In this document: one piece after another, positions 986 to 62,509 of the stretch | Numbering within the stretch: the stretch's first letter is position 1 | How the letters are laid out: the number at the start of each line of letters is the position of its first letter | DNA from: an uncultured Bdellovibrionales bacterium | GTDB taxonomy: Bacteria > Patescibacteriota > Minisyncoccia > Moranbacterales > UBA1568 | Assembly: GCA_964530135.1 (NCBI GenBank) | Contig: CAZGXN010000001.1 | Span: forward strand, 4,110-68,109 | Reading direction: 5' to 3' | Length of the DNA: 64,000 nucleotides | Notes under the pieces: model-generated | What the model saw: only the letters and a program-made list of their open reading frames with translations | Database searches by the model: none | What the model was told of the DNA's origin: nothing | Translations under genes and position numbers: made by a program

Positions 986-1037
986 GGTCTAGGTGTCCGA
1001 GGGTCTTTTGCCTAATGGACTCCAAGAGACGAAAGCG

Positions 1038-1709
1038 TCAGAGTGCCGCGTTGCCGGGGCAGAGAACCTGGCCGTCAGCATCCCAGTAACCAAGCTCGCC
1101 GAGCTCCCAGTCGATGACGTTCCACTCGCGGTCGTTAAAGTCCCAGCCGACACTCACGGTGAAAATTTCACCGTTTTTGCCCTCGACGTAGAAGATATTC
1201 GCGTAGCCGTTGTTGAGGAGCAAACCCGACTGGCCGCCCGGCTGTGCCTCGATCAAGGCTGCGATGTCTTCCAGCGTGGAGAGGTGGTTTTCCGGCAGTT
1301 CCTCCCTGATGTCTCGGTCGTAGGCGTTCGCTTTGAGGAGCGAGGCTACATAGGGACATGCCGGGGTCGAATCCACCGTCTGCCTGGCGTGGATGTCGAG
1401 GCGATCGGCGAAGGTGTCGTGGATGTAGAGGCCGGCGCCGGTCTGGTAGAACTCGGACGCTACGAAGGGCTTCGTCCGTGCCGGAACGGTCGCTTGGGCG
1501 ACGGGCTTGAGGAGCCGGGTTTCCGTGAGTTGCGGGTAGCGGGAACCACGATTGATGATGGACTGAACCATATTCGCCACCTTAGTCGGATCCAGGGATC
1601 CCTTGAGAACCCGCTGCATCCAATCGTGTTGTTGGCGGGCGAATCGCCCGATGACTTCGTCGGCGACAGGATATGTCATGACGTTCTCCATTGCCCATAG
1701 CCTAACCAA
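1038..1709 (-). CDS. hypothetical protein (beta-rich C-terminus). Likely true start is the ATG at 1691 (MENVMTYP...).
   Basis: Protein-like composition. The overlapping plus ORF 993-1700 is G/A/V/R-rich antisense noise. A terminator hairpin lies downstream. Confidence 0.45.
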   Translation of the reverse strand: MVRLWAMENVMTYPVADEVIGRFARQQHDWMQRVLKGSLDPTKVANMVQSIINRGSRYPQLTETRLLKPVAQATVPARTKPFVASEFYQTGAGLYIHDTFADRLDIHARQTVDSTPACPYVASLLKANAYDRDIREELPENHLSTLEDIAALIEAQPGGQSGLLLNNGYANIFYVEGKNGEIFTVSVGWDFNDREWNVIDWELGELGYWDADGQVLCPGNAAL

Positions 1710-1718
1710 ATGGTTAAG

Positions 1719-1801
1719 TTTGCCAGAGCATCAAATATTCTTGCTATCCTGAGTTCTGTCGAAGAAGAACAAGAAACAAAAAGACTTGATGCTCTGGCAA
1801 A
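1719..1801. repeat. 16-bp perfect inverted repeat (tttgccagagcatcaa / ttgatgctctggcaaa) with a 51-nt spacer
   Basis: Arms at 1719-1734 and 1786-1801. It sits in the 5' leader/promoter region of the 1038-1709 gene. Confidence 0.6.
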
Positions 1802-2088
1802 AGTGTCAGTTTTTAAACAACAGATCATTATACACCTTTTAAGTGGTTTTGTAAAGAGTGATGAATAGCCCTGTTTTGAGCCTTCCATTCACACTTCTTA
1901 CTCAATTTCTTTCTTCCCTCTCGGTTGTATAGTCCTCATTTCAGCACGAAACGACGGCCATCAGGATACATCGAAAGAGAGAATACAGGTATCGGAAAAC
2001 TATAGTTTTTCTTTCGTTTTTAATTTTTTGGGAAGTATCTGCCCGGCGAGGAATGACTTACACTTTTCATCACAATAATACAGCTTTG

Positions 2089-4161
2089 TTATTTGCCCTT
2101 TTCCTGCCGCGCGCCATCAATAAGTGCCCGAACAGCGTTCACATTAATATCGGGCTTGCGGCGGAGTGCTTTAAATCTTTTCGGCTCAATATGCTGGGTC
2201 TGTGATAGCTTCATCGGCGGCTCAGGTGCAGTGTATGCACGGAGCTCGGTGGACTGACGGCGCTCTGGACTCAGTGGCTTCTCAGTCAGCCGCTGCTGAG
2301 GAACAGGAGCGGCAGATTTCGTTTGTGCCACAACCTGATTCCGCTCCCGAGCGATCGCCCGCTGGTAATCACGCAGACAATCCTTACAAAATGTTGGGCG
2401 AGAAGCGTCGGGGGCAAAGGGTACTTCAATATCAATGCCACAAGTTGCACAAACTGCTGGATACAATACTTTTTCAGGGACCACTGCCGGTAACTCAGTC
2501 TCAAACATGTTTTCTGCCTCTTCAGGTGTTGCACTGTCCGGTACAACTTCAGGGGTTGGTGTAATGGGTCGCTGAGTTGAAGAAGCTTTCGGTAGTTTCG
2601 ATGTACTAGCTGATACAGTAATTGACTCAGTCGGTTCAGAAACTGTTTCAATACTCGGCTTGGGTAATTGCACAGGAATCGGTCTCGGTGCGATCGGCCG
2701 AGCCACTGGCTTGGGACGCGCTGGCTCGGTTATTTGTTCTCGCTTTGCGATCGTTTCGGTGCCGTGCAGTGGTGCTATTCGTTCCCGCGAGGTCGGACGT
2801 GGTGCTGTAGTCAACGGAGTAGTCTTTGGAGCTGCTGTTGCAGGTGTTCGCAGTGCCTGCTTTTCTTCTTCGGTCAACATCCCCGTCCAACGCCGGATCT
2901 TTTCTTCAACCTCTGCTTGTGAGGAAGCATAGCGTTCGCGAGTCGCCGCAATCACTTTCTCATTGATCCCGGGCGTTTCAATAAGAATCGGTGGAAGTGT
3001 CGTCGCCGAGAAAGCGTCCCCCGCGATACCATCTATCATCAGCTTGAGATAGATCTGATATTTCGGCAGATTCACCATGTCGTTCATCATGAACACTGGC
3101 TCGAATTCCTTTTCGAGGAACTCAGCATCCTGCGCTCCGACGCGGAAAGAAATAATCGTGCCCGCGTTGCCAAAAATTGCATCCCGAACTGGCTCTTCGA
3201 GCTGTGTAATATACTGATTGGCCAGAATGAGTGAAAGGCGATATTTCCGCGCTTCTGAGAGAATGTTGGCAAATGAGTCTGTCGCAAAGTTCTGAAATTC
3301 ATCGACATAAAGATAAAAATCCTTGCGGTCTTCCTCCGGTGTGTCCACGCGGCCCATGGCGGCGAGCTGGATCTTTGTGATCATCATCGCGCCGAGGAGT
3401 GCGCTTGAATCCTCACCGATCTTACCTTTAGCGAGGTTCATGATAAGGATTTTCTTTGAATCCATCACTTCACGGACATCGAATGCGCTCGTCGCCTGAC
3501 CGATAATATTGCGTATCAGACTGTTTGAAGTAAATTGACCGACTTTATTCTGAATCGGAGAAATGACTTCTTGAAGTACGCGTTCATTCCATCCCGCAAA
3601 TTCAACCGTCCAAAATTGTTTTACGACTGGATCAGTTACCTTCTCCATCACCCGCTCACGATAGCTCTTGTCGACGAGAATCCGCATGACACCCAACAAA
3701 CTCGCACCCGGGTATTCCAAGAGAGCAAGAATCGCATTTCGGAGAATATATTCCAGGCGTGGGCCCCAAGAATCCGCCCAGATTTTTTTAAACACCCCAA
3801 CCAAGCCAGATGCCACAAGCGAACGCTGATCGGCTCCAACTTGTTCCAATACATTAAAAGCAATCGGGAAGGCTTGGTCAGCCGGATCAAAGTAGATCAC
3901 ATCATTAATGCGTTCCGGCGGAATGGCTTTGATGAGTTTGAGAGCGACATCACCGTGCGGATCGATGAAACAAATGCCATGCCCCTGTTGGATATCCTGA
4001 ATTGCCAGGTTCTCGAGCAGATTTGTTTTCCCCATGCCGGTCTTGCCGATGAGGTACATGTGCCGACGACGGTCATCGGCCTTGATACCAAAAACCCGTT
4101 CTTGATTGCGGAAATTCGTCTTGGCGAACACGGTAATTTGATTGTCAGCGGACTCGGGCAT
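2089..4161 (-). CDS. type IV secretion coupling-protein-like P-loop ATPase (TrwB/TraD/VirD4 family). Soluble, with a Pro-rich linker and a C-terminal CxxC...CxxC zinc ribbon.
   Basis: Walker A IGKTGMGKTNLLENL followed by the FIDPHGD motif (the DPxGD signature of T4CPs). Walker B YLYVDEFQNF. There are no N-terminal TM helices. The C-terminus contains CATCG...FCKDC. Confidence 0.6.
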   Translation of the reverse strand: MPESADNQITVFAKTNFRNQERVFGIKADDRRRHMYLIGKTGMGKTNLLENLAIQDIQQGHGICFIDPHGDVALKLIKAIPPERINDVIYFDPADQAFPIAFNVLEQVGADQRSLVASGLVGVFKKIWADSWGPRLEYILRNAILALLEYPGASLLGVMRILVDKSYRERVMEKVTDPVVKQFWTVEFAGWNERVLQEVISPIQNKVGQFTSNSLIRNIIGQATSAFDVREVMDSKKILIMNLAKGKIGEDSSALLGAMMITKIQLAAMGRVDTPEEDRKDFYLYVDEFQNFATDSFANILSEARKYRLSLILANQYITQLEEPVRDAIFGNAGTIISFRVGAQDAEFLEKEFEPVFMMNDMVNLPKYQIYLKLMIDGIAGDAFSATTLPPILIETPGINEKVIAATRERYASSQAEVEEKIRRWTGMLTEEEKQALRTPATAAPKTTPLTTAPRPTSRERIAPLHGTETIAKREQITEPARPKPVARPIAPRPIPVQLPKPSIETVSEPTESITVSASTSKLPKASSTQRPITPTPEVVPDSATPEEAENMFETELPAVVPEKVLYPAVCATCGIDIEVPFAPDASRPTFCKDCLRDYQRAIARERNQVVAQTKSAAPVPQQRLTEKPLSPERRQSTELRAYTAPEPPMKLSQTQHIEPKRFKALRRKPDINVNAVRALIDGARQEKGK

Positions 4162-4214
4162 AAGATGCGTTGATCTAAAGCGAAAAAACGGTTTGAGTAC
4201 AAGCCTCAGTGAAC

Positions 4215-5492
4215 CTATTGTACTGGCAAATTGTTGGGGGCGCCACCACGCTTAGTCATGACGCGTGAAAGGGCTGGCGCGAGCACCTGCATATCCGGCA
4301 GATGAAACACTGTCGCCAGTTCTTCTGAAGAGAACATGAAACAGTTACTCGGTGGGTCAGAATCACGAGTAATATAGCGACGAAATAACCGACGCTGACG
4401 ATACCGCGTCCGCTGATCGACCAATAGATAACTCGCATAGGTCTTGGTGAGGTCGTCCGGTACCATGCTGTTTAGATTGAGATCATTGAATTGTTTGATC
4501 GCTCCGATAAAGGCCGAGACACCGGTTGCTTTGGAGAAATGCTCTTTTTGACCGATATACACATGGCGCATTTTCGTCTTGAACATCGGCTTACCAATAT
4601 TGCTTTCCAAGGCCTTCAGTATATCTTTTTGTCCAGGCGTGAGTCGGAACTCAACTGGTTGCTCTTCGGCCGCAGCGGCTTCTGAGAGACTCGTCCACGT
4701 CAATTCCTGTCCCAAGAGACCAGAAAACAAATTGCGGAAGACGTCCACTAAATCATGCCAAACCCGCGCAAAAATACCCAATCCGGCAACTTCTTCGTGT
4801 CCCAAAAACTCCTCGATCGTCGCCTGACCTTTCTTGGCTCCCCAATCCTCTTTCACAGGAGTTACCAAAAATTGGAGCCAGAGATGCTGTCCCGGACCGA
4901 TCTTCCCCATCGTTTCAATCAATCCAGCCAATGGATCAAGCATTTTTCCGGTAACGGATTCTTCAAAAAATTTATATGTCCGAATCGGGTAAAGGTCCGG
5001 TTTGAATAATATAAACTCTGTTCCCCACAAGTCCCAATCTCTGTTTGGCAGTGTCCGCGGCACATGCTTTGTATAATCCTCGGCCTCGACAATCTCGACA
5101 TTCGGATACTGCGCATAAAAATGTGCTTCAACCAAATTCCGAAAGGGTTTCTGAGTCCGAATATACATATGGACCAGTCCTTCGGTACTGACAAGCTCGA
5201 GGCTAAACTTGGCCGGGTATTCACCCGCGATATACTCTTCAAAAACAGTCGGTGATTTAATCACGCCGCCAAACCCCGAAAAAATCATCTCCATCGGATG
5301 TGGACTTTTTTCGAGCTCTTTCGGAGGAATAATCTCGAGTAAGACCCACTCAATGTTGCTTCCAAAGAGTTCATTACGACTGCTCAGCCAGAGAAATATA
5401 AACAACGGGTATAGAACGAACGGGAGTACATAAAACCAAACATCGCTCGCCACAGAAGCAATGGTCAATATGTTGTAAAAAAATTCAATCAT
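4215..5492 (-). CDS. membrane protein (2 N-terminal TM helices plus a ~350-aa soluble domain). Probable partner or anchor of the downstream coupling-like ATPase.
   Basis: Hydrophobic N-terminus VWFYVLPFVLYPLFIFLWL. It is co-directional with the ATPase gene, 54 bp upstream of it. Confidence 0.5.
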   Translation of the reverse strand: MIEFFYNILTIASVASDVWFYVLPFVLYPLFIFLWLSSRNELFGSNIEWVLLEIIPPKELEKSPHPMEMIFSGFGGVIKSPTVFEEYIAGEYPAKFSLELVSTEGLVHMYIRTQKPFRNLVEAHFYAQYPNVEIVEAEDYTKHVPRTLPNRDWDLWGTEFILFKPDLYPIRTYKFFEESVTGKMLDPLAGLIETMGKIGPGQHLWLQFLVTPVKEDWGAKKGQATIEEFLGHEEVAGLGIFARVWHDLVDVFRNLFSGLLGQELTWTSLSEAAAAEEQPVEFRLTPGQKDILKALESNIGKPMFKTKMRHVYIGQKEHFSKATGVSAFIGAIKQFNDLNLNSMVPDDLTKTYASYLLVDQRTRYRQRRLFRRYITRDSDPPSNCFMFSSEELATVFHLPDMQVLAPALSRVMTKRGGAPNNLPVQ

Positions 5493-5673
5493 GCCACTGC
5501 ATCACTCATTACGCGACTCTCAGTCTCTTCTCATAGTATAGAGAGTTTTTGCGCGCGAGGAAACTCTTTCCTCTGGTCCGGAAGGATATAACGGTAAAAA
5601 GATAGGGCGACATATCGAATCATCAAATGGACACGATGCACTCGATCAGACAAGTCTGAAACAAATCACGGAA

Positions 5674-6780
5674 TTACTTCCGCTTATCGGAGAGAGAGTA
5701 GATATTTTTTCCTACCTTTGTGAAAAAACTATTGAGGTTGATGATGACCGTCGAACGCTTTACTTGACGGACCTTCATCACGGCCTTCAAGAGCTCTTCG
5801 CGTGTCATAGGATTAACATTCTCTTGGAGGATAGAAGAAAGGACTTCGCGAACAGTCCCAGGACGAAACCCCCAATCAGAAAGAGCATAGGTACCCCGCC
5901 CAACTAGAACAAAGCGTTCATCTTTGATGAGTTCATTATGCACGGTTTGCGGATGTGTCTTCTTGCCCGTTTTGTAGAGGCCGTGCTCATCAATGAGACG
6001 GGCAATTTCACGGAAATGCAGTGGCTGTTTCATCACCTGGAGTATCAGATGGGCACGCTCGCGAGTCCCACGGGGACGGATAGTACTCCAATGGACAAGT
6101 CCGTAACGACCAAAAACATTTTTCTCAATTTCAACAGCTGGAACAAGCAACGACTCAAACATTTCTTTCGTCATATCAGTCGCTCCGGATTTCTTTATAT
6201 ATCGAGCATAGAGATCGTCCAATGACTGAGTCTCAGCCGCCTCCTTGAGAATACCAACGACCAATACTACGAATGCTTCCCATTCTTGAAGAGAAAAATC
6301 ATCCGTCATAATAATCGCTTTGTGTCGCGTGTTCGCCTTGCTCATCCGGCATCCAGGAAAAGCTGAGAGTAGGGCGAGGAGCGCCTTTTCTTCCGAGACA
6401 CTGCCATTTCCCAAGTCTGCGAGAACCGCATCGATCGTCATGATCCCACCTCGTTGTCTCACTCGCTCAATGACACGATTCACCAATGCATGATCTGCTT
6501 CATGGGCCATAATTTCCCGAATCCGCCGCATGATGACATCGACGATCTGACGGACTCGCTCGCGCGTGATACCATGTGTTTTCCCAATTTCTTCGAGTGT
6601 CTTTTCGGTACCATCTGTAATACCAAAACGCGCGCGTGTAATGACACCCGAACGCTCAGGGAAAGACGCCAATAAAGCATCAAAAAGATCTTCGGCCGTA
6701 CGCGTACTTGACAGACGAGCAGAATCAATAGTTTTCCTTCGTTCGGACATAAAAAAATCAATAATTATGATCTCTAACAA
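5674..6780 (-). CDS. DNA-binding protein with a sigma-70 region-4-like HTH and a C-terminal HARE-HTH domain
   Basis: TLEEIGKTHGITRERVRQI is a classic sigma70 r4.2 HTH. The C-terminal PLHFREIARLIDEHGLYKTGKKTHPQTVHNELIKDERFVLVGRGTYAL matches the HARE-HTH pattern. The likely start is the second Met (MSERRK). Confidence 0.6.
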   Translation of the reverse strand: MLEIIIIDFFMSERRKTIDSARLSSTRTAEDLFDALLASFPERSGVITRARFGITDGTEKTLEEIGKTHGITRERVRQIVDVIMRRIREIMAHEADHALVNRVIERVRQRGGIMTIDAVLADLGNGSVSEEKALLALLSAFPGCRMSKANTRHKAIIMTDDFSLQEWEAFVVLVVGILKEAAETQSLDDLYARYIKKSGATDMTKEMFESLLVPAVEIEKNVFGRYGLVHWSTIRPRGTRERAHLILQVMKQPLHFREIARLIDEHGLYKTGKKTHPQTVHNELIKDERFVLVGRGTYALSDWGFRPGTVREVLSSILQENVNPMTREELLKAVMKVRQVKRSTVIINLNSFFTKVGKNIYSLSDKRK

Positions 6781-6882
6781 CGCTTCATATTAACGCATAT
6801 TACCATATTTTGTCAAGAGTTGACGAAGAGTGAGGCACCTCAGACCAACTACCGTGTCTATCATCCTTAATCTTGGATTTGT

Positions 6883-6911
6883 TTGCCATTGATAAGTATG
6901 TCTTGTATAAT
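6883..6911 (+). promoter_or_regulatory. sigma70-like promoter (TTGCCA-N17-TATAAT) for the 6964 gene
   Basis: ttgcca at 6883-6888 and tataat at 6906-6911. It lies 52 nt upstream of the ATG. Confidence 0.45.
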
Positions 6912-6963
6912 TTGATCAGGAGAATACAAAGAATTCTCACAAACACGGAAAGAAATAAAAAAT

Positions 6964-7728
6964 ATGACTGATGTTTCTACTGAACCAAGTCTTCAACCCG
7001 TTCCAGATGGGGGCGCTAAGATTCAGGCCCTTCGGGAAATGATTCTCAATGCTGAACGCACTATTCAAAGTGCCAAGGCGATGCTCCTTCAGATTGAAGG
7101 GAAGAAGAAAACTGGTCGCCCCAAGAAATCAGAAGATTCTGCACTCGGCACAATCATTGAGGGCACTTTCGATGGACAAATCATGCTCGGTACTGATGGG
7201 AAGCAATACCCCGTCCCAGCAAACTATGCCTCCAAATCGAAACTCGTCGAAGGCGACATGCTAAAGCTCACTATCACGCCGGATGGATCGTTTATCTACA
7301 AACAAATCGGCCCCATCGATCGTCGCCATGCTATCGGTATCGTGAGTCAAGATGAAAACGGAAATTATCACATCGTCGTCGATGGTGAACCCTATCGCGT
7401 ACTCTTTGCTTCAATTACCTATTTCCGCGCTGAACCAGGCGATGAAGTCGCTGTCATGCTCCCACGAGGACTTTCCGCCTCCTGGGTCGCTATAGAAAAT
7501 ATCCTCCAAAAAGGCACGCTCGGTACACCCGTCCCACCCGTGAAGCCAGCGAGCGAACGCCATCTCCACGCCGACTGGAAAAAAGATCTCGCTGAGGAAA
7601 AAATGCCTGACTCTGATACCGCGACGACAATGACCCCGGCAGCGACCGCAACAGCCGATCTCTCACCGCTCGATGCCTGGGTGAAAGACATGGAAGCGAT
7701 CGAAAAAGAAATTGCCGAAGGTCGCTAA
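6964..7728 (+). CDS. hypothetical protein with two ~55-aa beta-rich internal repeats and a basic GKKKTGRPKK segment
   Basis: Internal repeat GQIMLGTDGKQYPV...LVEGDMLKL versus GNYHIVVDGEPYRV...EPGDEVAVML. Composition is clean. Confidence 0.5.
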   Translation: MTDVSTEPSLQPVPDGGAKIQALREMILNAERTIQSAKAMLLQIEGKKKTGRPKKSEDSALGTIIEGTFDGQIMLGTDGKQYPVPANYASKSKLVEGDMLKLTITPDGSFIYKQIGPIDRRHAIGIVSQDENGNYHIVVDGEPYRVLFASITYFRAEPGDEVAVMLPRGLSASWVAIENILQKGTLGTPVPPVKPASERHLHADWKKDLAEEKMPDSDTATTMTPAATATADLSPLDAWVKDMEAIEKEIAEGR

Positions 7729-13768: not shown

Positions 13769-15355
13769 TTAGAGATCATTGCCTGAATAGGAAAGATTGA
13801 AGCTCTTATTGATCAATGGAAAATCCGGCACCATATCACTCGTTACAAGATATGGAAAAACCGGCCAATTCAAGAAAGATGGGTCCCGCACCTTCACGCG
13901 TGTAACCGCGCCGACAGAATCCGTAGCAATGAAGTAAACAATATCCCCGCGCCAACCTTCGACGAGACCAACTGCATGCGCATTGGGCGTGAGCGAATTG
14001 ACTGTGGCAGCAATGGGTCCATTCTTTGAAGCCTCTTGTTCAATCGCTTGATGCAAGATTTTGAAAGATTGGTACACTTCGCGCTCCCGAATCTTGTATC
14101 GAGCAAAGACATCGCCAGCCGTCTCAGTAGGGACAGAAAATTGAATCCTCTCATACGCCGCATATGAAAAGTCTGTCCGCGCATCGGCTTTGATACCGAT
14201 GGCCCGTGCGCCGATCCCCACAATCCCATGATCTATCCCAATAGAACGTTCTATTCGACCCGTGTTTTGAAGTCGATTGAGCAGTGAGAGGCTTTCCGAC
14301 ACTGCCTCCATTATTTCCCGAAAATCCTGTTCGAGATCCATACTATCTGCCTTGAGAGCTATTAGTTGGTCATTGGAGATATCCTGTGTCAATCCGCCTG
14401 GGAGGAGCATGCCCCGCAGAAAACGGTGGCCGGTGAGTCGCTCGTTCCATTCCATTACTCGTTCACGAAGACGCGTCCCTTGACTCCCCCCAAATGCGAG
14501 GCCCGTGTCAAGCATGATAAACGCAAGATCATTGAAATGATTGGCTAATCGTTCGAGCTCAGCGAGTATTGTCCGGAGATAGATCGCCCGCCGAGGTACT
14601 TCCACTGATGCGAGCGTCTCAATAGCCTGACAATAAGCCAGGGCATGATGAAATGAACTATCACCTGAAATGCGTTCCGCTAATGCCACTCGTTTTTCAG
14701 ATGAGAGCACTTCAAAAAGTTTTTCCGTTCCTTTGTGGACATAACCCAGGCGTGATTCGAGACGGAGGATCTCTTCACCCAGGACACTGAAACGAAAGTG
14801 CCCGGGCTCAATAATGCCAGCATGGACGGGACCGACGGGTATTTCATACACCCCTTCGCCCTCATAGCGCTTGAAAGTCGCCCATTCCTTTTCCTGAGGC
14901 TCAGTGATCACCGTGTTCCACTGAAACTCTTTCCTGAGCGGATAGATATCTTTGGGAAAATTTTCAGCATGGAGAGTTATCCGTTCTGGTTGAGGGTGTC
15001 CATCTGGATTAAGCCCAAAAAAAGTCAAAATCTCGCGCTCATACATGGCAAATTCTTGGTCTTCGGGCGTGAGTGAAGGAAATGAAGGCTTGTCAGCATC
15101 CACTGTGAGGTATGGTATAAGAAAACAATTTTCCTTTGGCACACCAAAGACATAGTAGATTCGAAAATTCCTGTTACTTGCTCGCTCATCGGTAGCAGAA
15201 ACTGTTTTGAGCGGGAGACTGTGTGTTTTCTTCAAAGTACGGATAACTTGAGGAAGAGCCTCTGCAGATACCTCAAATAACACCCGATTTCCTTCGACTG
15301 TTGGGTTGGGAATATCGAGACCAAAACGCTGGAATACGCGGAGTGAGTCAATCAT
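13769..15355 (-). CDS. NuoC-NuoD / [NiFe]-hydrogenase large-subunit-like protein (Ehr-type) lacking both Ni-Fe cysteine motifs
   Basis: An N-terminal 30-kDa (NuoC-like) domain is fused to a NuoD/HycE-like domain. Where RxCGxCxxxH is expected it reads RISGDSSFHHALAYCQAIE. The C-terminus is SFNLSYSGNDL with no DPCxxC motif. Confidence 0.8.
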   Translation of the reverse strand: MIDSLRVFQRFGLDIPNPTVEGNRVLFEVSAEALPQVIRTLKKTHSLPLKTVSATDERASNRNFRIYYVFGVPKENCFLIPYLTVDADKPSFPSLTPEDQEFAMYEREILTFFGLNPDGHPQPERITLHAENFPKDIYPLRKEFQWNTVITEPQEKEWATFKRYEGEGVYEIPVGPVHAGIIEPGHFRFSVLGEEILRLESRLGYVHKGTEKLFEVLSSEKRVALAERISGDSSFHHALAYCQAIETLASVEVPRRAIYLRTILAELERLANHFNDLAFIMLDTGLAFGGSQGTRLRERVMEWNERLTGHRFLRGMLLPGGLTQDISNDQLIALKADSMDLEQDFREIMEAVSESLSLLNRLQNTGRIERSIGIDHGIVGIGARAIGIKADARTDFSYAAYERIQFSVPTETAGDVFARYKIREREVYQSFKILHQAIEQEASKNGPIAATVNSLTPNAHAVGLVEGWRGDIVYFIATDSVGAVTRVKVRDPSFLNWPVFPYLVTSDMVPDFPLINKSFNLSYSGNDL

Positions 15356-15360
15356 ATAAT

Positions 15361-16812
15361 TTAGTCAGTGAGATCTTGACGAATAGATTCGAGGAGTGCT
15401 GAGAGTGGCTCAGGGAGATGCCAGCTAAGGACAAGCAGGGTCACAAGAATTAGTACTGCTGGGAGCTGTGTGAGGAAAGAACTCTCTCCGCGTTCGATCC
15501 CCTCCGACACCGACCCATACATCAAAGCGGTTACGAAACGGAGGAGTCCAAAAAACATGATACTGAGTGCTCCAAGGAGTGCCACTGCAAGCCAAGGTGA
15601 AAACTGAATGGCAGCTGAAAGGATAAGAAACTTCGTCGTGAAAAGCGCGAAGGGTGGCAGTCCAGCGAGGATAAGGATACCAACGAAGAAAAGTGGCCCA
15701 GAAAGTGGGAGCGCTGTGAGGACACCCCTGACATTCTTGAGCTTGGTCGAACTGTAACAAAGGAAAATGTTGCCCGCGAGCAGGAAAAGCATCGACTTGA
15801 TCAGCGCATGATAGAGCATATGGAAAAGGCTCGCGAGAATTCCAACACCTCCTAAACCAAAACCAAGAGTGATGAGGCCCATATGCTCAATGCTTGAATA
15901 CGCCAACAAACGCTTGTAATTCTTCTGGATAAATATAATGAAGGCTGCAAGGAAAATTGAGAGTATCCCGAAAAAAATAAAGAGGCTACTGGTAAAGTGA
16001 GCATCGTCACCCAGGGCAATATCTGTAACCAACTTCCACCGCAACACTGCAAAAAGCGCGACATTGAGGAGTACGCCTGACAAAAGGGCTGAGATCGGCG
16101 AAGGTGCTTTGCTGTGCGCATCTGGAAGCCAAGTATGGAGAGGTGCCAGACCAATCTTGGTCCCATAACCGATAAATACTAAAACAAAGGCAATTTTGAC
16201 GGCTCCTGATGGCAATGTTCCTGCCGCCGCAATAAAACCAGCCCAATCAGTCGCACTCGAACGCTCGCCCTGAAGCGCGATAAAAATAAGTGTCCCCAAG
16301 AGACCAATCAGAAGACCGAGTGCATTGATGATGAGGTATTTCCAGGCAGCCTCGGTCGCACTGGGCTTATTATAAAAACTGATAAGAAAGACTGTTGCTA
16401 GCGTCGTGGCTTCAATAGCGATCCAGGTAACGATTGGATTTGTGGTTGAAACGGCCAGATACATGGCAAAAAGAAACAGCTCCAACAAAACAAAAAACTG
16501 ACGCACCCGGCGTGGTCCAATGATCCCCTTGGCTACCTCAGCGCGAAGATACCCCACTGAATAGAGTGAGACAAAAAAACCAACCAACGCGATCAAGAGT
16601 ACGAGGTACACTGATAAATTATCCAGTGCCAGGCCGCCCGGGTGAATTGTCGGCGTGTTCGCTGACGGCGAAATCACGAGTCGAACAGCGAGTGTGAGTG
16701 CAATACCCGCGGCCGCAATAACACTTCCTTCTATGAGACGAATTTTCTTTGCTGGTAAAAGAAATACAAAGAGGGCAATCAATGCAGGGAGGAAGTTCAG
16801 GATAAATATCAT
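15361..16812 (-). CDS. NuoM/NuoN/MrpD-like antiporter-type membrane subunit
   Basis: Polytopic membrane protein carrying GLAPLHTWLPDAHSKAPSPISALLSG, the conserved motif of the NuoL/M/N-MrpA/D-HyfB/F family. Confidence 0.8.
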   Translation of the reverse strand: MIFILNFLPALIALFVFLLPAKKIRLIEGSVIAAAGIALTLAVRLVISPSANTPTIHPGGLALDNLSVYLVLLIALVGFFVSLYSVGYLRAEVAKGIIGPRRVRQFFVLLELFLFAMYLAVSTTNPIVTWIAIEATTLATVFLISFYNKPSATEAAWKYLIINALGLLIGLLGTLIFIALQGERSSATDWAGFIAAAGTLPSGAVKIAFVLVFIGYGTKIGLAPLHTWLPDAHSKAPSPISALLSGVLLNVALFAVLRWKLVTDIALGDDAHFTSSLFIFFGILSIFLAAFIIFIQKNYKRLLAYSSIEHMGLITLGFGLGGVGILASLFHMLYHALIKSMLFLLAGNIFLCYSSTKLKNVRGVLTALPLSGPLFFVGILILAGLPPFALFTTKFLILSAAIQFSPWLAVALLGALSIMFFGLLRFVTALMYGSVSEGIERGESSFLTQLPAVLILVTLLVLSWHLPEPLSALLESIRQDLTD

Positions 16813-16823
16813 ATAAGAGAGGA

Positions 16824-17483
16824 TTAGTCTTCGGTAAGGTGGCGCATCTCACGAGTATCAAGCGATCCAAATTGACGGTACACGAGACTCAAAAATGTAT
16901 AGGCGATCATCATCCAGATAAGAATATCGAAAATGATACCCATCTCAAGTGCGAAGGTCTGCTTCACGCCAAGGAAAACAGCAAAGAGTATGATGCCATT
17001 CTCAAGTGCCAGGACAGCGATAATCTGTGCGAGTGCCCCTTGTCGATTGATAAGGAGAAAGATAGCGATGAGTACCATCGCGATATTGAAGACAAAAACA
17101 TCCGGCGTAACGGATGACACCACCCACAACGAACTAAAGGTTGAGGAAGCTGCAAAGATGATGAGGCCGAGAAGTACAACCAATGTCAGTGGCATCGAGA
17201 GATAACTCGCACTTGCAACGAGATAACCGAAGCGCTGAATGAGACGCGTGAAAAAGTACGGCGCCAGAATCACTTTAGCGATGAGTGTAATACTACCCAC
17301 AGCTATCAAACTGCGTTCCCCTTCTGCTAGACCAAGAAGTATGAGTACGCCCGCCACCGACGCTGACTGCAGCGCATACAGACGAATGGTATACTTTGTG
17401 CTCCGCACCAGATGCAAAAGTACCACTGTGAGAAAAGCCACGAGATTGAGAATAAGTGCAAGATTGAGGAGAGAAGCTTCCAT
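16824..17483 (-). CDS. small polytopic membrane subunit (HyfE/NuoK-like, tentative)
   Basis: 219 aa with ~6 TM helices, embedded in the operon. Its size is similar to hydrogenase-4 component E. Confidence 0.5.
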   Translation of the reverse strand: MEASLLNLALILNLVAFLTVVLLHLVRSTKYTIRLYALQSASVAGVLILLGLAEGERSLIAVGSITLIAKVILAPYFFTRLIQRFGYLVASASYLSMPLTLVVLLGLIIFAASSTFSSLWVVSSVTPDVFVFNIAMVLIAIFLLINRQGALAQIIAVLALENGIILFAVFLGVKQTFALEMGIIFDILIWMMIAYTFLSLVYRQFGSLDTREMRHLTED

Positions 17484-17487
17484 ATAT

Positions 17488-18468
17488 TTACAGTGTCAAT
17501 GAGACCGTGAGTACCACAGCAACCATACCGAGTACAAATGAAGTAAAGAGTAAATCTGGAACACGGAAGATACGGAATTTTGCCATCAGCGATTCGATGA
17601 GCGCAATAGCGCCGAGAAAACAAACGGTTTTACCAGCAAAAATAAATGCTGGGAGGAAAAGTGTTTGAAATGAAACAAACTCAACTGCGACCCCCCAAGG
17701 AAAGAAAATATTAGCTCCCAATGCGATAAATATAAGAAGTTTATTCGCACTTGCCCATTCCATGAGCGCGAGCCGTTTGCCGGAATATTCCAGCAACATC
17801 GCTTCATGAATCATCGTCAGCTCAAGATGAGTCGCTGGATTGTCTACTGGAAAACGGGAATTTTCAGCAAGGAGAGCGAGCGCAAAAGCGAGGAAAGCAA
17901 CAAAGAGCGGAAAAATTACAGAGAGCGGAAGTGTGCCGAGCTGCGCTACAATATCGAGGACATATCCGGTCCCCGCAAGAAATGAAGCCGGAAGAAATGA
18001 AAAGATGAGTCCTGCTTCAGCCAAGGCTGCTACCATCATCTCTCGGCTTGAACCAAAACCACCAAAGCCACTTCCCGCATCGAGACCAGCCAATGCCAGA
18101 AAGAATGTCATCAGCCCAAAGAGGTAAACAATGATGAGAAAATCACCCGTAGCAGTCAGAGCCCACTCCGGATAGCCTGGAATCGCTGGGGCAATTGCCG
18201 TTACCAGCGGCACAGTCGCACCAAGCAGAAGTGTGATAGCAAAGATGATGTAAGGAGCAAAACGCGTAATCCACGAAGCATCCTCTGAGAGGACTTCATC
18301 TTTTGCGAAGAGCTTGCGCAAATTGCGATACGGTTGAAAGATGTCGGCTCCGACCCGACCTTGGAGACGCGCTTTCAGACGACGAATAATCCCAATACAC
18401 AGCGGCGACAAAACTGGAACCGCAACGATTTGAAGAATAAAGAAAAAGAATTCCATAGGTAGAGTCAT
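17488..18468 (-). CDS. NuoH/HycD/EchB-family membrane subunit
   Basis: ~8 TM helices. Its length and hydrophobicity match the complex-I subunit-1 family. The stop overlaps the upstream gene (18468). Confidence 0.7.
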   Translation of the reverse strand: MTLPMEFFFFILQIVAVPVLSPLCIGIIRRLKARLQGRVGADIFQPYRNLRKLFAKDEVLSEDASWITRFAPYIIFAITLLLGATVPLVTAIAPAIPGYPEWALTATGDFLIIVYLFGLMTFFLALAGLDAGSGFGGFGSSREMMVAALAEAGLIFSFLPASFLAGTGYVLDIVAQLGTLPLSVIFPLFVAFLAFALALLAENSRFPVDNPATHLELTMIHEAMLLEYSGKRLALMEWASANKLLIFIALGANIFFPWGVAVEFVSFQTLFLPAFIFAGKTVCFLGAIALIESLMAKFRIFRVPDLLFTSFVLGMVAVVLTVSLTL

Positions 18469-20531
18469 CAGGATTGCGCCGCCCAGAGCAAGGCACCGAT
18501 GAGGGTGAGGGCGAAATAAAAAATATACATATTCACATTCCCCGTCTGGACACGCCGCACTCGATCCGCGAAATAATGAATGGATCGGCCGATTGGTCTG
18601 TATATCCGCTCATGGTATATGTCATGTAAACCCGTCTCAATCCCAACTGTCCGAATAAAATACCGCGTCCGTTCATCGTGATATTCCACTGTCGACTGCC
18701 TCGTTGGTCGGAGAATACCTTGGAAAATCGTTACGAGTGAACGAGAGAAACTCGTCGCTGTAATCTCGCTTCGACCGGAAAGCGGAAAACCACAGTCCCA
18801 GGTCGGACCAATAACTACCCGCCGTTCCCGAGTCATGAAACGAACAACCAAGTACAAAAGTCCTGTAATAAGTCCTAGGAGAACCGCTACTGTCATCAAT
18901 GGAAGAATATCGGCAAAGGCGTGCCGGGAAGCAACAATTTCACGAAAAGGAAAGTACAGCGTTGCTGAATCGGTCAATCCAATACTCGCTACTATACCCG
19001 TCAAACCAGCCAAAACAGCGGGTGATGACAAACCAAAAAGTAGGGCCAAACCCGCGAGGAGGCCCATAGGCAGGAGCATCGGCCAAGCGACCTCGGTTCT
19101 GGCTTCTGCAACCACCACTCGTGGCCGGGCCAAAAATACTGTTCCAAAAACTTTGACAAAACAGGCGATGGCCAAACCGCTGGTGAAAACAAGGCTTGAG
19201 AGAGCAATAAGGAAGGTGATTTTCACCGCTAGGGGTGCGCCCAATACGCCAGCAAAAAGAACTTGGAAAACCAGCCACTCACTCACAAATCCATTGAGGG
19301 GTGGGAGAGCAGCAATCGCGAGTGATCCCACCAAGAAAAAAGCCGCTGTATATGGCATGACGCGTATGAGTCCACCATAAGACTCCATGTTCCGCGTCCC
19401 AGTAACACTGACGAGTGCTCCGGCGCCAAAGAAGAGGAGTGATTTGAAGATCGCATGATTCACCATGTGATAGAGAGCGGCTGCCAGTGCGAAAAGCGCC
19501 ACCTGTTCCTGACCCAATGCAAAGAGCGTCAGCCCAGCCCCAAAGGCAATCGTGATAATTCCAACATTTTCTACCGTACTGTATGCGAGGAGACGCTTGA
19601 GATCACGCTCCGCGTTCGCGTAGAGAATACCGAGCAATGCCGATACCGAACCGATAAGCAGAAATGTCACACCCCATTCAACCCGCGCGCCCTGAAAAAA
19701 ATCAAAGAAAAACCGAAACAGCATAAACAGCGCGGTTTTTACCATGATGCCCGACATAAGCGCCGAAACATGCGACGGCGCCGCAGGATGCGCTTCTGGA
19801 AGCCAGGTATGAAGTGGGATGAGGCCAGCCTTAGTGGAAAATCCGATGAGGGCAAACCCGAGAATAAAAAGTTCGAGCTTCGGCGGTACCGTTCCAAAAA
19901 CCGTACGCCACACATCAAAGGAAAGTGATCCTGTTGCTTTATATGCCAAGAGACAAGCGAGCATGATGAACGCCGTGCCAAAATGTGTCATGAGGAAGTA
20001 GAGAAATCCAGCTCGAACACTTTCAGCCTTCTCACGTTCAAAAACAACAAGAAAGTATGAGGCGAGCGACATCAACTCCCACACCAGAAGGAAAAAAAGT
20101 GCCTGATTGGCTATCGGTACGAGTAAGAGACTCCCGACAAAAAGATTGTAAAAAAATCCAAATGAACCAAGTCGACCACTCCCGATATACTGCTGCTGGT
20201 ACTGATAACCATACACTGAAGCAAGGAGTACCAGGCTAGAGGCTAGTCCCAGAAAAAAAGATCCCATTCCGTCGATACGGAACGAGAGTTCAAGCAATGG
20301 CAATGGCCCCATATACACCCAAGACAGTCCCCGACCCTGCAGGAGCACTGTTGCCGCTATTGCAAGACCAACCAGTGATCCGAGTGCCGCGAAACCGTGA
20401 GCGAGAATATTCGCGAGCCGACCACCATCCTGTCGCCTCGCTTCGGCCAAAAGCGACGCCACTGCGCCAAAGAGGAACAGTCCGACAAGGAGAAACAATG
20501 CATTTTCAGTCATGAAGAATTCCATAATCAC
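18468..20531 (-). CDS. NuoL/HyfB/HycC-like antiporter-type membrane subunit
   Basis: 687 aa. GLIPLHTWLPEAHPAAPSHVSALMSGIMVKT is the family motif. Confidence 0.8.
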   Translation of the reverse strand: MIMEFFMTENALFLLVGLFLFGAVASLLAEARRQDGGRLANILAHGFAALGSLVGLAIAATVLLQGRGLSWVYMGPLPLLELSFRIDGMGSFFLGLASSLVLLASVYGYQYQQQYIGSGRLGSFGFFYNLFVGSLLLVPIANQALFFLLVWELMSLASYFLVVFEREKAESVRAGFLYFLMTHFGTAFIMLACLLAYKATGSLSFDVWRTVFGTVPPKLELFILGFALIGFSTKAGLIPLHTWLPEAHPAAPSHVSALMSGIMVKTALFMLFRFFFDFFQGARVEWGVTFLLIGSVSALLGILYANAERDLKRLLAYSTVENVGIITIAFGAGLTLFALGQEQVALFALAAALYHMVNHAIFKSLLFFGAGALVSVTGTRNMESYGGLIRVMPYTAAFFLVGSLAIAALPPLNGFVSEWLVFQVLFAGVLGAPLAVKITFLIALSSLVFTSGLAIACFVKVFGTVFLARPRVVVAEARTEVAWPMLLPMGLLAGLALLFGLSSPAVLAGLTGIVASIGLTDSATLYFPFREIVASRHAFADILPLMTVAVLLGLITGLLYLVVRFMTRERRVVIGPTWDCGFPLSGRSEITATSFSRSLVTIFQGILRPTRQSTVEYHDERTRYFIRTVGIETGLHDIYHERIYRPIGRSIHYFADRVRRVQTGNVNMYIFYFALTLIGALLWAAQS

Positions 20532-21070
20532 GCAGCCTGAATTGTCCGATTATGATCGATGGTCTCCAATATCTCGAGAACTGCTTTGAGTATAACTTTT
20601 GGTGCCGGTGGATCACCCGAAATTTTAAAATCTACCGGAATGACATCGGCTACCCGATCATACACGGCGTATGAACCGCGATAGATGCCACCATCGATCG
20701 CGCCATCCCCGACCGCGACGACCCACTTAGGTGTCGGCATCGCAGCATAGGTCCGCCGAAGACCTTCAGCCATATTGCGGCTCACTGGGCCGGTCACAAA
20801 GAGCATGTCCGCGTGCCGAGGCGAAGCCACAAATTGCACGCCAAAACGCTCAATATCGTAATAGGCATTGGTGAGCGCAACGAGTTCCTGTTCTTCAGCA
20901 TTACTCGAACCAGCGGCGACCTCACGAATCGCGATAGAACCACCGAACAGTTTATTGGCACGTTCTTTAATCGCTTTGCCGAGAGTCTCAATCTCGCTGA
21001 TTCCACGAATATCACGCTCACTTTTCACCTTGAGCGGTGTCGTAAAGATTTTTTTCAGCATCTGATACAT
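20528..21070 (-). CDS. NuoB / hydrogenase small-subunit-like protein with no cysteines at all (no Fe-S cluster N2 ligands)
   Basis: YDIERFGVQFVASPRHADMLFVTGPVSRNMAEGLRRTYAAMPTPKWVVAVGDGAIDGG aligns to the NuoB core YDxxRFG...SPRQAD...MPEPKWVISMGSCANGGG. All four Cys positions (CC, C, CPP) are replaced: AAGSS, GDG, DPP. Confidence 0.75.
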   Translation of the reverse strand: MYQMLKKIFTTPLKVKSERDIRGISEIETLGKAIKERANKLFGGSIAIREVAAGSSNAEEQELVALTNAYYDIERFGVQFVASPRHADMLFVTGPVSRNMAEGLRRTYAAMPTPKWVVAVGDGAIDGGIYRGSYAVYDRVADVIPVDFKISGDPPAPKVILKAVLEILETIDHNRTIQAA

Positions 21071-21175
21071 AACAACAGCTTTTTCAATTGAGAAAAACCA
21101 AACACTCCACGGAAACCTCCGAGATTTTTACTCGGCTATGGTACTCCCTTTAGTGTTTTTTGTCCACACCCACAC

Positions 21176-21793
21176 CTACAAGAGACTCTCTCTCCGATCA
21201 CGCCGATCACGCCAGTACTCAAACACTCCTGGCAAAACCGAAAGAAAAATGATCAATACGACAATCGGTAAGAGGTAACGATCAATATCTTCAATGAGGC
21301 TCCCCAAATAATAGGCAATGAGCGTGAGACCAACCGACCAAAGTACAGCACCGATAAAATTAAAAAAGGCAAAAGTCCCATAATGCATCCGTGCTACGCC
21401 AGCGACGATCGGCGCAAAGGTCCGAACAATCGGAATGAAACGAGCCAGAACAATAGTCTTGCCGCCATAGCGCTCATAGAATGCTTGTGCTTTCAAGATG
21501 TGCGACTTGCGGAACAGGAGCGAGTCCTCACGGGTAAAAATCTTGGGCCCGACGAATGCACCAAACCAATATCCAACCATATTACCTGTGAAAGCCGCTA
21601 TAAAGAGAATGATAAGTAGGAGCGGGAGGGAGAAAAATCCCTGCGCTGCAAGCACGCCCGCGACAAAGAGGAGACTATCACCTGGGAAGAAGAACCCAAG
21701 AAAAAGGCCAGTTTCCGCAAAAACGATCGCGAAAAGCCCAACATACCCGATCGTCTTTATCGCCTGCACCATGTCGATACCAAAAAATTCCAT
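21176..21793 (-). CDS. DedA-family membrane protein
   Basis: The FFPGDSLLFVAGVLA and GKTIVLARFIPIVRTFAPIVAGVARM DedA/SNARE-associated motifs are present. Confidence 0.75.
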   Translation of the reverse strand: MEFFGIDMVQAIKTIGYVGLFAIVFAETGLFLGFFFPGDSLLFVAGVLAAQGFFSLPLLLIILFIAAFTGNMVGYWFGAFVGPKIFTREDSLLFRKSHILKAQAFYERYGGKTIVLARFIPIVRTFAPIVAGVARMHYGTFAFFNFIGAVLWSVGLTLIAYYLGSLIEDIDRYLLPIVVLIIFLSVLPGVFEYWRDRRDRRESLL

Positions 21794-21803
21794 ATAGTTA
21801 ATC

Positions 21804-52130: not shown

Positions 52131-54796
<2,666 letters not shown>

Positions 54797-54799
54797 AAT

Positions 54800-55402
54800 T
54801 TATTTCCAAGCTGAAAGAAAAAGTTCCGTATATACGCATTTATTCGTCGCAGTACACCAATTTATCGCACCGCCACCATTCAGATTTGACCCAGGATTTT
54901 GCCAGGCGACAAAGCTCTGCACGCGCGCTGTATCGCTCGCCGTGTGATCGATCTTTATCAAGCGATAGTATCGGGTGCTCGTTCCAACAGCATGTTTGTA
55001 CAAACCTGACCCGTCCAGCACCAATTCTAGGGACACGGGCGGACATGTAAAATCAGTACTGTCATAGCTCGCTGTGCAATTCCGATTGACTCCGACCGGG
55101 AAATAGCGAAACGGATCGCAATTCCCGCTCGTCGAAGTCTGACACATATCACCCGTTGACCAATTCTCAAGCCGATAGGCACTATTATTATCCCGAATAT
55201 TACGCGCCACTTCCACTCCTTCCTGGGCAAGTTCCGACGCGATGATAACGCGTTGTGAATCCAATGAATTCCGGTGCGAAGCCGAAAAGAAACTCAGAAT
55301 CACAGCAATCCCTGCCGAAAGCAAGAAACTCGCAATGATCACTTCAACGATCGTGAATGCCCGAACATGGCGAGGTTGAGAAGAGAGTTTCATAGGATAC
55401 AT
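54800..55402 (-). CDS. minor pilin (PilV/GspI-like)
   Basis: RAFTIVEVIIASFLLS. Confidence 0.7.
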   Translation of the reverse strand: MYPMKLSSQPRHVRAFTIVEVIIASFLLSAGIAVILSFFSASHRNSLDSQRVIIASELAQEGVEVARNIRDNNSAYRLENWSTGDMCQTSTSGNCDPFRYFPVGVNRNCTASYDSTDFTCPPVSLELVLDGSGLYKHAVGTSTRYYRLIKIDHTASDTARVQSFVAWQNPGSNLNGGGAINWCTATNKCVYTELFLSAWK

Positions 55403-55405
55403 AAT

Positions 55406-55906: not shown

Positions 55907-55937
55907 ACCCTTCTATTGTACCGCACAACTCGAGAAA

Positions 55938-56747: not shown

Positions 56748-56793
56748 ATGTATTCAAAAAACATCACGCACGGCCAAATGCTCGCAAGATTAT

Positions 56794-58214: not shown

Positions 58215-58234
58215 GTTTTATTCATAATTCTCAC
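57821..58234 (-). CDS. type IV major pilin, variant 3 (different short leader [10 protein letters not shown])
   Basis: [10 protein letters not shown]|FTLIELLIV. Preceded by the RBS aggagg. Confidence 0.8.
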
Positions 58235-58410
58235 CTCCTTTCTTGTTTGTTTTTGTTATGTTCGCACATTTTTATTGTATCGTATTTTTCACTCATACGG
58301 TAGATTTCTGTCAAGCGACTACACAACACACATTCAACACTCTCTCCTCAGTTGTGTGTCAAATGTGATATCTTGACCAGTCCCCAGGCCCGGCTGTGTG
58401 TTCCTTTGCA

Positions 58411-59628: not shown

Positions 59629-59682
59629 ACTCAGGATATTGTATCCATATATTCATCTCCCCGCATCGCCCAACCCACTGAC

Positions 59683-62503: not shown

Positions 62504-62509
62504 CAGGTT

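Follow-up and report, generated by a model that had tools for sequence, protein, structure and literature searches.

Patescibacteria make up a large part of uncultured bacterial diversity and depend on hosts, and the movement of macromolecules in these organisms is largely not understood. A stretch of 64,000 nucleotides (nt) from such a bacterium, an ultra-small one of Candidatus Moranbacteria to judge by the names of near-identical proteins (contig CAZGXN010000001.1 of assembly GCA_964530135.1), called the window below at its full length, contains a gene pair that raises the following question: what does an ATPase resembling type IV coupling proteins (T4CPs) do where it has neither a membrane domain of its own nor a relaxase or VirB4 gene beside it? 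The ATPase has 690 amino acids (aa) and is encoded downstream of a 425-aa membrane protein on the same strand, with 53 nt between the two open reading frames (ORFs); both ORFs are present, as a preliminary description of the locus had reported. The answer proposed here, which we regard as likely, is that the two genes encode two halves of one VirD4/TrwB-like motor, which was derived from conjugation and recruited to a lineage-wide function other than conjugation. The motor was probably recruited for another transport job.

Three Pfam models of T4CPs match the ATPase above their cut-offs, namely TrwB_AAD_bind with 35.2 bits (cut-off 20.5), TraG-D_C with 30.3 (22) and T4SS-DNA_transf with 24.6 (20.1). 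In the same scan, DUF87/HerA reached 21.5 bits and stayed under its cut-off of 23.2, HerA_C gave an E-value of 0.077 and FtsK_SpoIIIE did not match; the best profiles are those of coupling proteins rather than of FtsK or HerA, in line with the family first suggested for the protein. The equivalog models of NCBIfam (TraD, CD1115) score it far under cut-off, and it therefore lies outside every named equivalog. The top phmmer matches in the PDB are DotL/IcmO (7.6e-6) and TrwB (1.6e-5). A Foldseek search with the AlphaFold2 (AF2) model returned DotL as the best match (2e-9), together with Cag-beta (3e-9), HerA (4d2i; 3e-9, with a TM-score under that of TrwB), TrwB (2e-8, TM-score about 0.5) and VirB4 (2e-6). 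These profiles and the predicted fold place the ATPase in the FtsK-HerA superfamily as a VirD4/TrwB-like protein, although all coupling proteins characterised so far are only distantly related to it. Two traits of coupling proteins are absent from it: an N-terminal transmembrane domain in the same chain, and genetic association with a relaxase and/or a type IV secretion system (T4SS) of the VirB4 type. Membrane attachment is presumably supplied by the partner, a protein of the family DUF8128.

The ATPase is composed of a core, a linker, a zinc ribbon and a basic tail (Table 1). The core starts with a beta-hairpin, which is followed by a RecA-like nucleotide-binding core and by C-terminal helices (residues 399-438). 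In the AF2 model, in which the predicted local distance difference test (pLDDT) of the core is mostly 65-90, eight helices are inserted between the core strands at about residues 110-234; this is the site of the all-alpha domain (AAD) of coupling proteins, and the Pfam alignment extends across it. The motifs on which the first assignment was built are all found in the translation: Walker A (IGKTGMGKT, residues 38-46), FIDPHGD (residues 65-71) and Walker B (YLYVDEFQNF, residues 283-292). In an alignment of 42 homologues, Walker A (GKTGMGKT), FIDPHGD, Walker B (YLYVDE) and the four cysteines of the ribbon are invariant. An RK...Q motif after Walker B (R305/K306 and Q316) is likewise invariant and aligns to that of TrwB. 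Judged by its motifs, the enzyme is catalytically intact. Over segments of 19 residues the Kyte-Doolittle value peaks at 1.53, none exceeding 1.6, and among the 77 orthologous ATPase ORFs that adjoin DUF8128 genes, most have the start of Walker A at residues 33-46. The missing N-terminal membrane domain, which had been remarked on from the outset, is therefore a trait of the family and not the product of a mis-called start.

The linker is rich in proline and threonine (P23 T17 E14 A11 S10 in 121 residues), has pLDDT values of 31-39, and varies in length and sequence among the 42 aligned homologues. It measures about 125 aa, not the 170 or so given in the preliminary description, which was right about its composition and about the CxxC...CxxC ribbon and basic tail that follow. 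The ribbon (C571-x2-C574-x17-C592-x2-C595) matches Pfam PF23477 zf_Tbcl_2 with 40.5 bits (cut-off 27) and NCBIfam TIGR04272 with 45 bits (cut-off 36). The ATPase thus carries a predicted zinc ribbon of the CxxC-x17-CxxC family, and zinc binding has been shown experimentally for other members of this domain family (PMC12704099). Of the 77 orthologue ORFs next to DUF8128 genes, 53 contain the motif, and contig ends truncate about 11 of those without it. Residues 600-690, the tail, together carry a charge of +11 net; Y643, P649, P660, K661, F663, K664 and R678 are conserved in it across the alignment, and helices are predicted at the C-terminal end of the protein at residues 593-615, 660-667 and 674-689.

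The partner owes its DUF8128 (PF26449) label to precomputed annotations only, in which PF26449.1 is assigned to the exact window protein (100% identity) and to all 120 listed homologues. When the partner was scanned against Pfam and NCBIfam, nothing matched, the copy of Pfam that was scanned being apparently without the PF26449 model, and a literature search for PF26449/DUF8128 found no paper. The family comprises 1665 representative clusters at 50% identity, and at least 585 stretches were confirmed in a collection of one genome per GTDB species. Among the best 80 of these stretches, the informative titles belong nearly all to Parcubacteria-type Patescibacteria; some third-party annotation (TPA) titles among the matches (Bdellovibrionales, Gammaproteobacteria) are evidently mislabelled. 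The conserved C-terminal motif of the partner reads SSEELATVFHLPD...AP.L.R...GG.P.NLP.

For this protein, two N-terminal transmembrane helices and a large soluble domain had been described. The membrane segment and the large domain were both recovered, but one helix is likelier than two. In the AF2 model (pLDDT 73.8, pTM 0.71) the chain begins with a single continuous helix (residues 2-39), after which come alpha/beta domains. Across the family, the median length of the hydrophobic span is 26.5 residues, with 0.35 lysine plus arginine in the 15 residues ahead of the span and 2.3 after it. Because of the continuous helix, the span length and the positive-inside rule, the partner probably has one transmembrane helix, oriented N-out and C-in, with the large domain in the cytoplasm. 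With this conserved 380-residue cytoplasmic domain, it is more than an anchor.

Searches of the PDB by sequence, with the single protein or a family profile, found nothing for the partner. With the DUF8128 model, the only significant Foldseek matches were to TrwK/VirB4 of R388, in ten chains (E 3e-5 to 1.5e-3, probability 0.99-1.0); the TM-scores are low (0.32-0.36, about 0.35), and the search does not state which part of TrwK was aligned. No signal was obtained when DUF8128 was compared by hhalign with the VirB4-like proteins of Shouchella and Embleya (probability <1). A possible resemblance of the modelled domain to the N-terminal domain of VirB4 is taken as a lead.

The two proteins are brought together by homologues in which both occur in a single chain. 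A tblastn search of plasmids with the ATPase gave matches of about 30-33% identity in Bacillus/Shouchella, Streptomyces/Embleya, haloarchaeal and Sulfolobus plasmids, and DUF8128 weakly matched the N-terminal part of the same Bacillus/Shouchella ORFs. In an 883-aa protein of Shouchella clausii (NZ_CP012476, WP_248290882), hhalign aligned residues 40-313 with residues 83-417 of DUF8128 (probability 98.7, E 1.6e-16), including the terminal EELATxxHxP motif, and residues 346-704 align with residues 32-376 of the ATPase (31.7% identity, 2e-47). The fused protein has a junction of 33 residues, compared with 39 for the split pair. Pfam's DUF8128 model also matches a close relative of the Shouchella N-terminus (P0397). 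The neighbours of the Shouchella gene encode a Replic_Relax relaxase, TcpC and an AAA_10 VirB4-like ATPase. In Embleya (NZ_CP108778) the order is PrgI, VirB4-like ATPase, coupling protein (WP_331738717, 812 aa) and Replic_Relax relaxase; this coupling protein has a transmembrane helix at residues 34-56, an ATPase domain from about residue 415 and a weak hhalign match to DUF8128 (E 1.7e-4). A 1193-aa protein of Haladaptatus (NZ_CP085331, WP_227357333), which adjoins a VirB4-like ATPase, also has a weak match to DUF8128 (E 1.2e-5). These profile alignments identify DUF8128 as the domain with which one class of coupling proteins from monoderms and archaea begins, the case being firmest in Firmicutes. 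Since the same two domains are fused colinearly elsewhere, the gene-fusion evidence indicates that the two products of the window work together. The split anchor/motor arrangement proposed earlier is upheld by these single-chain homologues in so far as the split is concerned; the idea of the partner as a mere anchor is not.

The closest match to the window ATPase in the plasmid collection is a stand-alone soluble ATPase of 395 aa from a plasmid of the alphaproteobacterium Sulfitobacter mediterraneus (NZ_CP081110; L086:7998-9185; 41.7% identity, E 2e-101); the conjugative coupling proteins found in that collection are all more distant. Its gene is surrounded by transposases and a recombinase, with no DUF8128 gene annotated nearby, and the protein matches the mad8 model of PADLOC.

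The mad8 model also matches the window ATPase (3.8e-18), which brings up systems of defence or DNA processing in which a HerA-type ATPase acts with an effector (HerA-NurA, SIR2-HerA, MADS); DUF8128 would then be an enzyme such as a nuclease. HerA complexes among the fold matches and the invariant residues E68, E99, D139, D186, E193, E391 and H397 of DUF8128 would be in keeping with this. However, mad8 scores the conjugative fused T4CPs about as well (52-72 bits), and the match is non-discriminating because conjugative coupling proteins match equally. DUF8128 matches no PADLOC model and no nuclease fold, its conservation is vertical, near-universal and confined to a single locus, unlike that of defence islands, and the identified conserved neighbours are housekeeping genes or the HTH gene described below, other MADS genes not having been searched for. 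A defence system is considered very improbable.

Synteny was followed in 80 GTDB species loci and one metagenomic locus, in which ORFs were called and then searched with the window proteins. In 76 of the 79 informative species loci (76 of 80 in all, the remaining locus being a contig end), the next gene after DUF8128 on its strand is that of the ATPase, mostly with gaps of <100 nt, so that the pair is syntenic in relatives, a lack of synteny having been named at the outset as a refuting outcome. Immediately upstream of DUF8128, on the same strand, a third gene with a sigma-70 region 4 and a HARE-HTH domain (the HTH gene) was found in 71 of the 81 loci, 74 of the 81 having at least 1.5 kb of upstream sequence. 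Between the window proteins and their orthologues in 61 species, the median identity is 66% for the ATPase core, as against 37% for DUF8128 and 35% for the HTH protein. In some species, a second copy of the T4CP-like ATPase lies in tandem with or near the DUF8128-linked one (L040:3576-6999; L038:7-543), which agrees with the literature figure of about two T4CP homologues per genome.

The statement that no relaxase or VirB4 gene lies nearby was borne out: neither was found in the window, where Pfam was run on about 40 of the larger ORFs and phmmer against all six-frame ORFs, nor within 8 kb of the pair in 80 loci. A Pfam scan of the larger window ORFs also found no integrase near the locus. The neighbours of the pair are housekeeping genes such as SecDF and DnaX. 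A conserved run of five genes (SecD, SecF, HTH, DUF8128, ATPase) is present in 40 loci, half of the species loci (e.g. L041:4442-6792), and in the window clade the position of SecD/SecF is held by a 254-aa protein of no known function, GtrA and DnaX. The locus is chromosomal and in housekeeping surroundings. These observations bear on the suggestion that the pair is the remnant of an integrated conjugative element, with a coupling protein that is decaying or still serves transfer. Membership of the family and the plasmid-located relatives would agree with a remnant, but the three-gene arrangement is present in at least 70 species with partner identities of 33-87% and intact catalytic motifs, integrase, relaxase and VirB4 were not found nearby, and the GC content of the locus is that of its flanks. 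The suggestion is hardly credible.

A related module is found in Southlakia epibionticum. There, SEML1_0294 (Sigma70_r4 at 27-72, HARE-HTH at 225-283) lies directly upstream, on the same strand, of SEML1_0293 (921 aa, TrwB_AAD_bind at 402-719), and both are flagged as core, Patescibacteria-enriched families (Wang et al. 2023, PMC10633639 Tables S1, S2). As about 360-400 residues precede the P-loop domain in a single chain, SEML1_0293 is apparently a fused form, and the module is apparently present, fused, in Saccharibacteria too. The breadth of the DUF8128-ATPase module beyond Parcubacteria-type lineages is judged from record titles, some of them mislabelled, and from the Southlakia tables. 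By transposon sequencing (Tn-seq), SEML1_0294 was classed as essential (ES) and SEML1_0293 as non-essential (NE), the normalised reads of the latter dropping from 5817 to 1372 over the time course, and the T4SS genes were essential (PMC10633639). Southlakia encodes a second T4CP-like protein, SEML1_0142 (1019 aa, P-loop domain 381-800), which is essential by Tn-seq together with the small upstream gene SEML1_0141 (PMC10633639 Table S1). A 2025 survey called the ML1 t4cp homologue non-essential (PMC12102498), and the paralogues SEML1_0142 and SEML1_0293 should be kept apart.

In the same survey, VirB4 was reported in 2417 of 3035 Patescibacteria genomes, whereas 5713 VirD4-type T4CP homologues were reported in 2918 of them; only 148 of the 5713 lie near virB4, and relaxases were found in 103 genomes (Quinonero-Coronel et al. 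2025, PMC12102498). The authors suggested exaptation of T4CPs for other functions (PMC12102498). Unlinked T4CP homologues in Patescibacteria were thus already published in 2025; the split gene structure, DUF8128 as the N-terminal domain of coupling proteins, the zinc-ribbon tail and the conserved sigma region 4/HARE-HTH neighbour were not in the literature searched.

These figures can also be read in favour of a working coupling protein of a Patescibacteria T4SS encoded elsewhere, which would move protein or nucleic-acid cargo out to the host or in from it. The family does this job, T4CP genes are often unlinked from virB4, most Patescibacteria carry an MPF-FATA-like T4SS (PMC12102498), and the fused relatives are T4CPs of monoderm T4SSs. 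Nevertheless, T4CP homologues occur in about 500 more genomes than VirB4 (PMC12102498), and neither the whole window nor the 8 kb around the pair in the 80 loci yielded a relaxase. Furthermore, SEML1_0293 is non-essential where the T4SS genes of Southlakia are essential, which argues against an obligatory role in essential T4SS function. A coupling protein in service of a distant T4SS is therefore possible, though we do not expect it.

The occurrence of T4CP homologues in 96% of the genomes, against 80% for VirB4 (PMC12102498), would likewise suit a housekeeping DNA translocase of the FtsK/HerA kind, independent of any T4SS and acting in segregation, repair or recombination at the membrane. 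The strong conservation of the ATPase core, the core-genome setting beside SecDF and DnaX and the near tie of HerA in the fold search speak for such a translocase. On the other side, the Southlakia counterpart is non-essential, a transcriptome paper on the Saccharibacteria strain TM7x reportedly mentions FtsK, the nearest relatives of the same two-domain build outside Patescibacteria are coupling proteins in conjugation clusters, and the HerA and FtsK profiles fell short as described above. On this evidence, a housekeeping translocase is unlikely.

It had been conceived at first that the pair is linked to a competence pilus elsewhere in the window. If so, the ATPase could be a DNA uptake motor of natural transformation, which would act with the type IV pilus (T4P) and ComEC, pull DNA inward and take the part played by ComFA in Firmicutes. 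Patescibacteria are naturally competent by means of T4P and ComEC, and comEC is dispensable for growth (PMC12857230), as is the T4CP-like gene of Southlakia (PMC10633639); the predicted zinc ribbon and the basic tail would suit the binding of nucleic acids. A T4P cluster does lie within the window, but about 50 kb from the pair, and pilus genes occur within 8 kb of it in only 2 of the 80 loci, so that the proposed link finds no support. Neither comEC nor dprA is among the conserved neighbours. Uptake via ComEC is not known to be driven by any ATPase of the coupling-protein type, and this was also counted against an uptake motor, which we hold to be quite doubtful.

Table 1. Features of the window discussed in the text (positions are those of the 64,000-nt stretch)
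Feature	Position	Strand	Basis or remarks
ATPase ORF, 690 aa	2089-4161	-	
ATPase core, residues 1-440	2842..4161	-	Pfam, PDB phmmer, AF2 model, Foldseek, 42-sequence alignment
Disordered linker, residues 441-565	2467..2841	-	composition, pLDDT, poor conservation
Predicted zinc ribbon, residues 566-600	2362..2466	-	zf_Tbcl_2, TIGR04272, pLDDT 75-82
Basic C-terminal tail, residues 601-690 and stop codon	2089..2361	-	charge, conserved columns, predicted helices
DUF8128 (PF26449) partner, 425 aa	4215..5492	-	precomputed Pfam, AF2 model, homology to fused T4CP N-terminal domains
Hydrophobic stretch of partner, residues 4-37	5382-5483	-	
Gene with sigma-70 region 4 (residues 37-89) and HARE-HTH (residues 241-303)	5674-6780	-	Pfam
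254-aa protein of no known function	6964-7728	+	
Long ORF, 223 aa	1038-1709	-	overlaps the next
Long ORF	993-1700	+	overlaps the former
Complex-I/Mrp-like membrane module	13769-23894	-	fused 30-kDa and 49-kDa subunit (528 aa); two Proton_antipo_M proteins; NuoK-like, NuoH-like and NuoB-like proteins (Oxidored_q6); then VTT/DedA protein and 696-aa Na/H exchanger
Type IV pilus cluster	54230-63301	-	Pfam; about 50 kb from the pair; includes two N_methyl pilins
Prepilin peptidase	55938-56747		pilus cluster
PilC	58411-59628		pilus cluster
PilT-like ATPase	59683-60837		pilus cluster
PilB with MshEN domain	60824-62503		pilus cluster

The third gene was overlooked in the preliminary description, as were the Southlakia module and the weak fold match of DUF8128 to VirB4 (TrwK). 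In public gene calls the ORF of the third gene starts 10 codons later and encodes 358 aa. A profile of the HTH family matched the region 4 domain of SigA in the PDB at E 1e-19. The HARE-HTH domain resembles the N-terminal domain of the RNA polymerase delta subunit, TIGR04567 scoring 39 bits and thus under its cut-off of 42. Region 4 and HARE-HTH both occur as modules in proteins associated with RNA polymerase, and the HTH protein may be an uncharacterised RNA polymerase accessory factor. A scan of positions 1700-7000 for promoters and terminators found sites no more often than in shuffled sequences, which says nothing for or against co-transcription. The HTH protein was also considered as an analogue of the relaxase, and this was rejected, as hhalign against a Replic_Relax protein gave a probability of 0.6.

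Two other parts of the window may be mentioned. Two long ORFs overlap on opposite strands; the 223-aa product of the reverse-strand one has no Pfam match, and homologues of it turned up only in the three contigs whose partner protein is identical. The species loci gave none. Farther away lies a Complex-I/Mrp-like membrane module, which looks like a group-4 [NiFe]-hydrogenase (Mbh/Ech-type) or an Mrp complex. Respiratory complexes are generally absent from Patescibacteria, and such a module is unusual there.

The two-part motor preferred here could work as follows. DUF8128 would sit in the membrane by its one N-terminal helix, N-out and C-in. The ATPase would form a hexameric ring, which the cytoplasmic domain of DUF8128 would tether to the membrane by docking on its N-terminal face. 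Hydrolysis of ATP would then propel a polymer through this ring toward a membrane channel encoded elsewhere. Nucleic acid is the most likely polymer, and the Patescibacteria T4SS, ComEC or none at all may be considered for the channel. The zinc ribbon and basic tail, borne on the flexible linker, may capture the substrate or an acidic partner, and may replace the acidic, relaxosome-binding kind of tail seen in the Firmicutes plasmid homologue. To judge from the Southlakia counterpart, the lineage-wide function would be dispensable for epibiotic growth in laboratory co-culture. A further step would be an inward-acting nucleic-acid motor common to all Patescibacteria, which pulls RNA or DNA of the host into the epibiont via the T4SS pilus channel or another pore. 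We rate this as improbable; if true, it would explain the uptake on which the nucleotide-scavenging lifestyle recently proposed for Patescibacteria depends, and for which the mechanism was stated to be unresolved (bioRxiv 10.64898/2026.06.21.733656). A more modest reading is that this lineage, in which a VirB4-like N-terminal domain is joined to a VirD4-like ATPase, would be an intermediate in the evolution of VirB4 and the coupling proteins.

Several points weigh against a conjugation-derived motor with the HTH gene as its companion. HerA (4d2i) is nearly tied with the T4CPs in the fold search, at E 3e-9, and because of this tie the assignment within the superfamily relies mainly on modest profile scores of 25-35 bits. 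Three of the 79 informative loci have DUF8128 without an adjoining ATPase. About one fifth of the complete orthologues are without the zinc ribbon, which is thus dispensable. The nucleic-acid nature of the substrate is suggested only by family history and by the predicted ribbon and basic tail. The identification of the N-terminal 360-400 residues of SEML1_0293 with DUF8128 is a presumption from length and gene order. Finally, the HTH gene is essential in Southlakia and the ATPase gene is not, and the HTH protein therefore has a role beyond the module; conserved gene order, and not a common function, may account for its position next to the pair.

If the two-part motor is accepted, the orphan VirD4-like genes of Patescibacteria gain a defined anatomy, that of a two-gene motor with DUF8128 as the membrane-tethered half, a zinc ribbon tail of the nucleic-acid type and a conserved HTH neighbour like parts of RNA polymerase, and a Pfam domain of no known function gains a context. 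Part of the coupling-protein family has a large N-terminal domain, possibly similar to the VirB4 one. Southlakia is genetically tractable, and SEML1_0293 and SEML1_0294 are concrete genes there with which the cargo of the motor could be sought.

Among known systems, TrwB (R388), DotL, Cag-beta and TraD are like the window ATPase in having a nucleotide-binding domain with an all-alpha insertion, the Walker A...DPxGD arrangement and RK...Q after Walker B. The similarity to the canonical VirD4 family is low (E about 1e-5, 14-19% identity in structural alignments), and the window ATPase differs from that family in that it has no transmembrane domain in the same chain, no linkage to a relaxase or T4SS, a separate partner and a C-terminal zinc ribbon. 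VirB4 (TrwK) resembles the DUF8128-ATPase build, since it has a large N-terminal domain ahead of a related ATPase domain. In pIP501, TraJ is a T4CP without transmembrane helices, and TraI has been proposed as its membrane anchor in trans (PMC12857230), as is suggested here for the window pair. TraI is, however, small, with two transmembrane helices and without a large domain, and the pair of pIP501, which is accompanied by a relaxase, works in conjugation; the likeness would be a functional analogy only.

Like the window pair, the fused T4CPs of plasmids have a DUF8128-type N-terminal domain that ends in ELAxxxHxP and is followed by a beta-hairpin, Walker A, an AAD-like region and Walker B, and their ATPase parts are 28-33% identical to that of the window. 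Unlike the pair, they are single polypeptides, are borne on plasmids and lie beside a VirB4-like ATPase, with Replic_Relax in addition in the two bacterial plasmids. The zinc ribbon was not seen in the proteins of Shouchella, Embleya and Haladaptatus, and the Shouchella protein is without a transmembrane helix and has an acidic tail where that of the window ATPase is basic. In comparison with these fused coupling proteins, the window version is split, chromosomal and without a relaxase, and it carries a linker, a predicted zinc ribbon and a basic tail.

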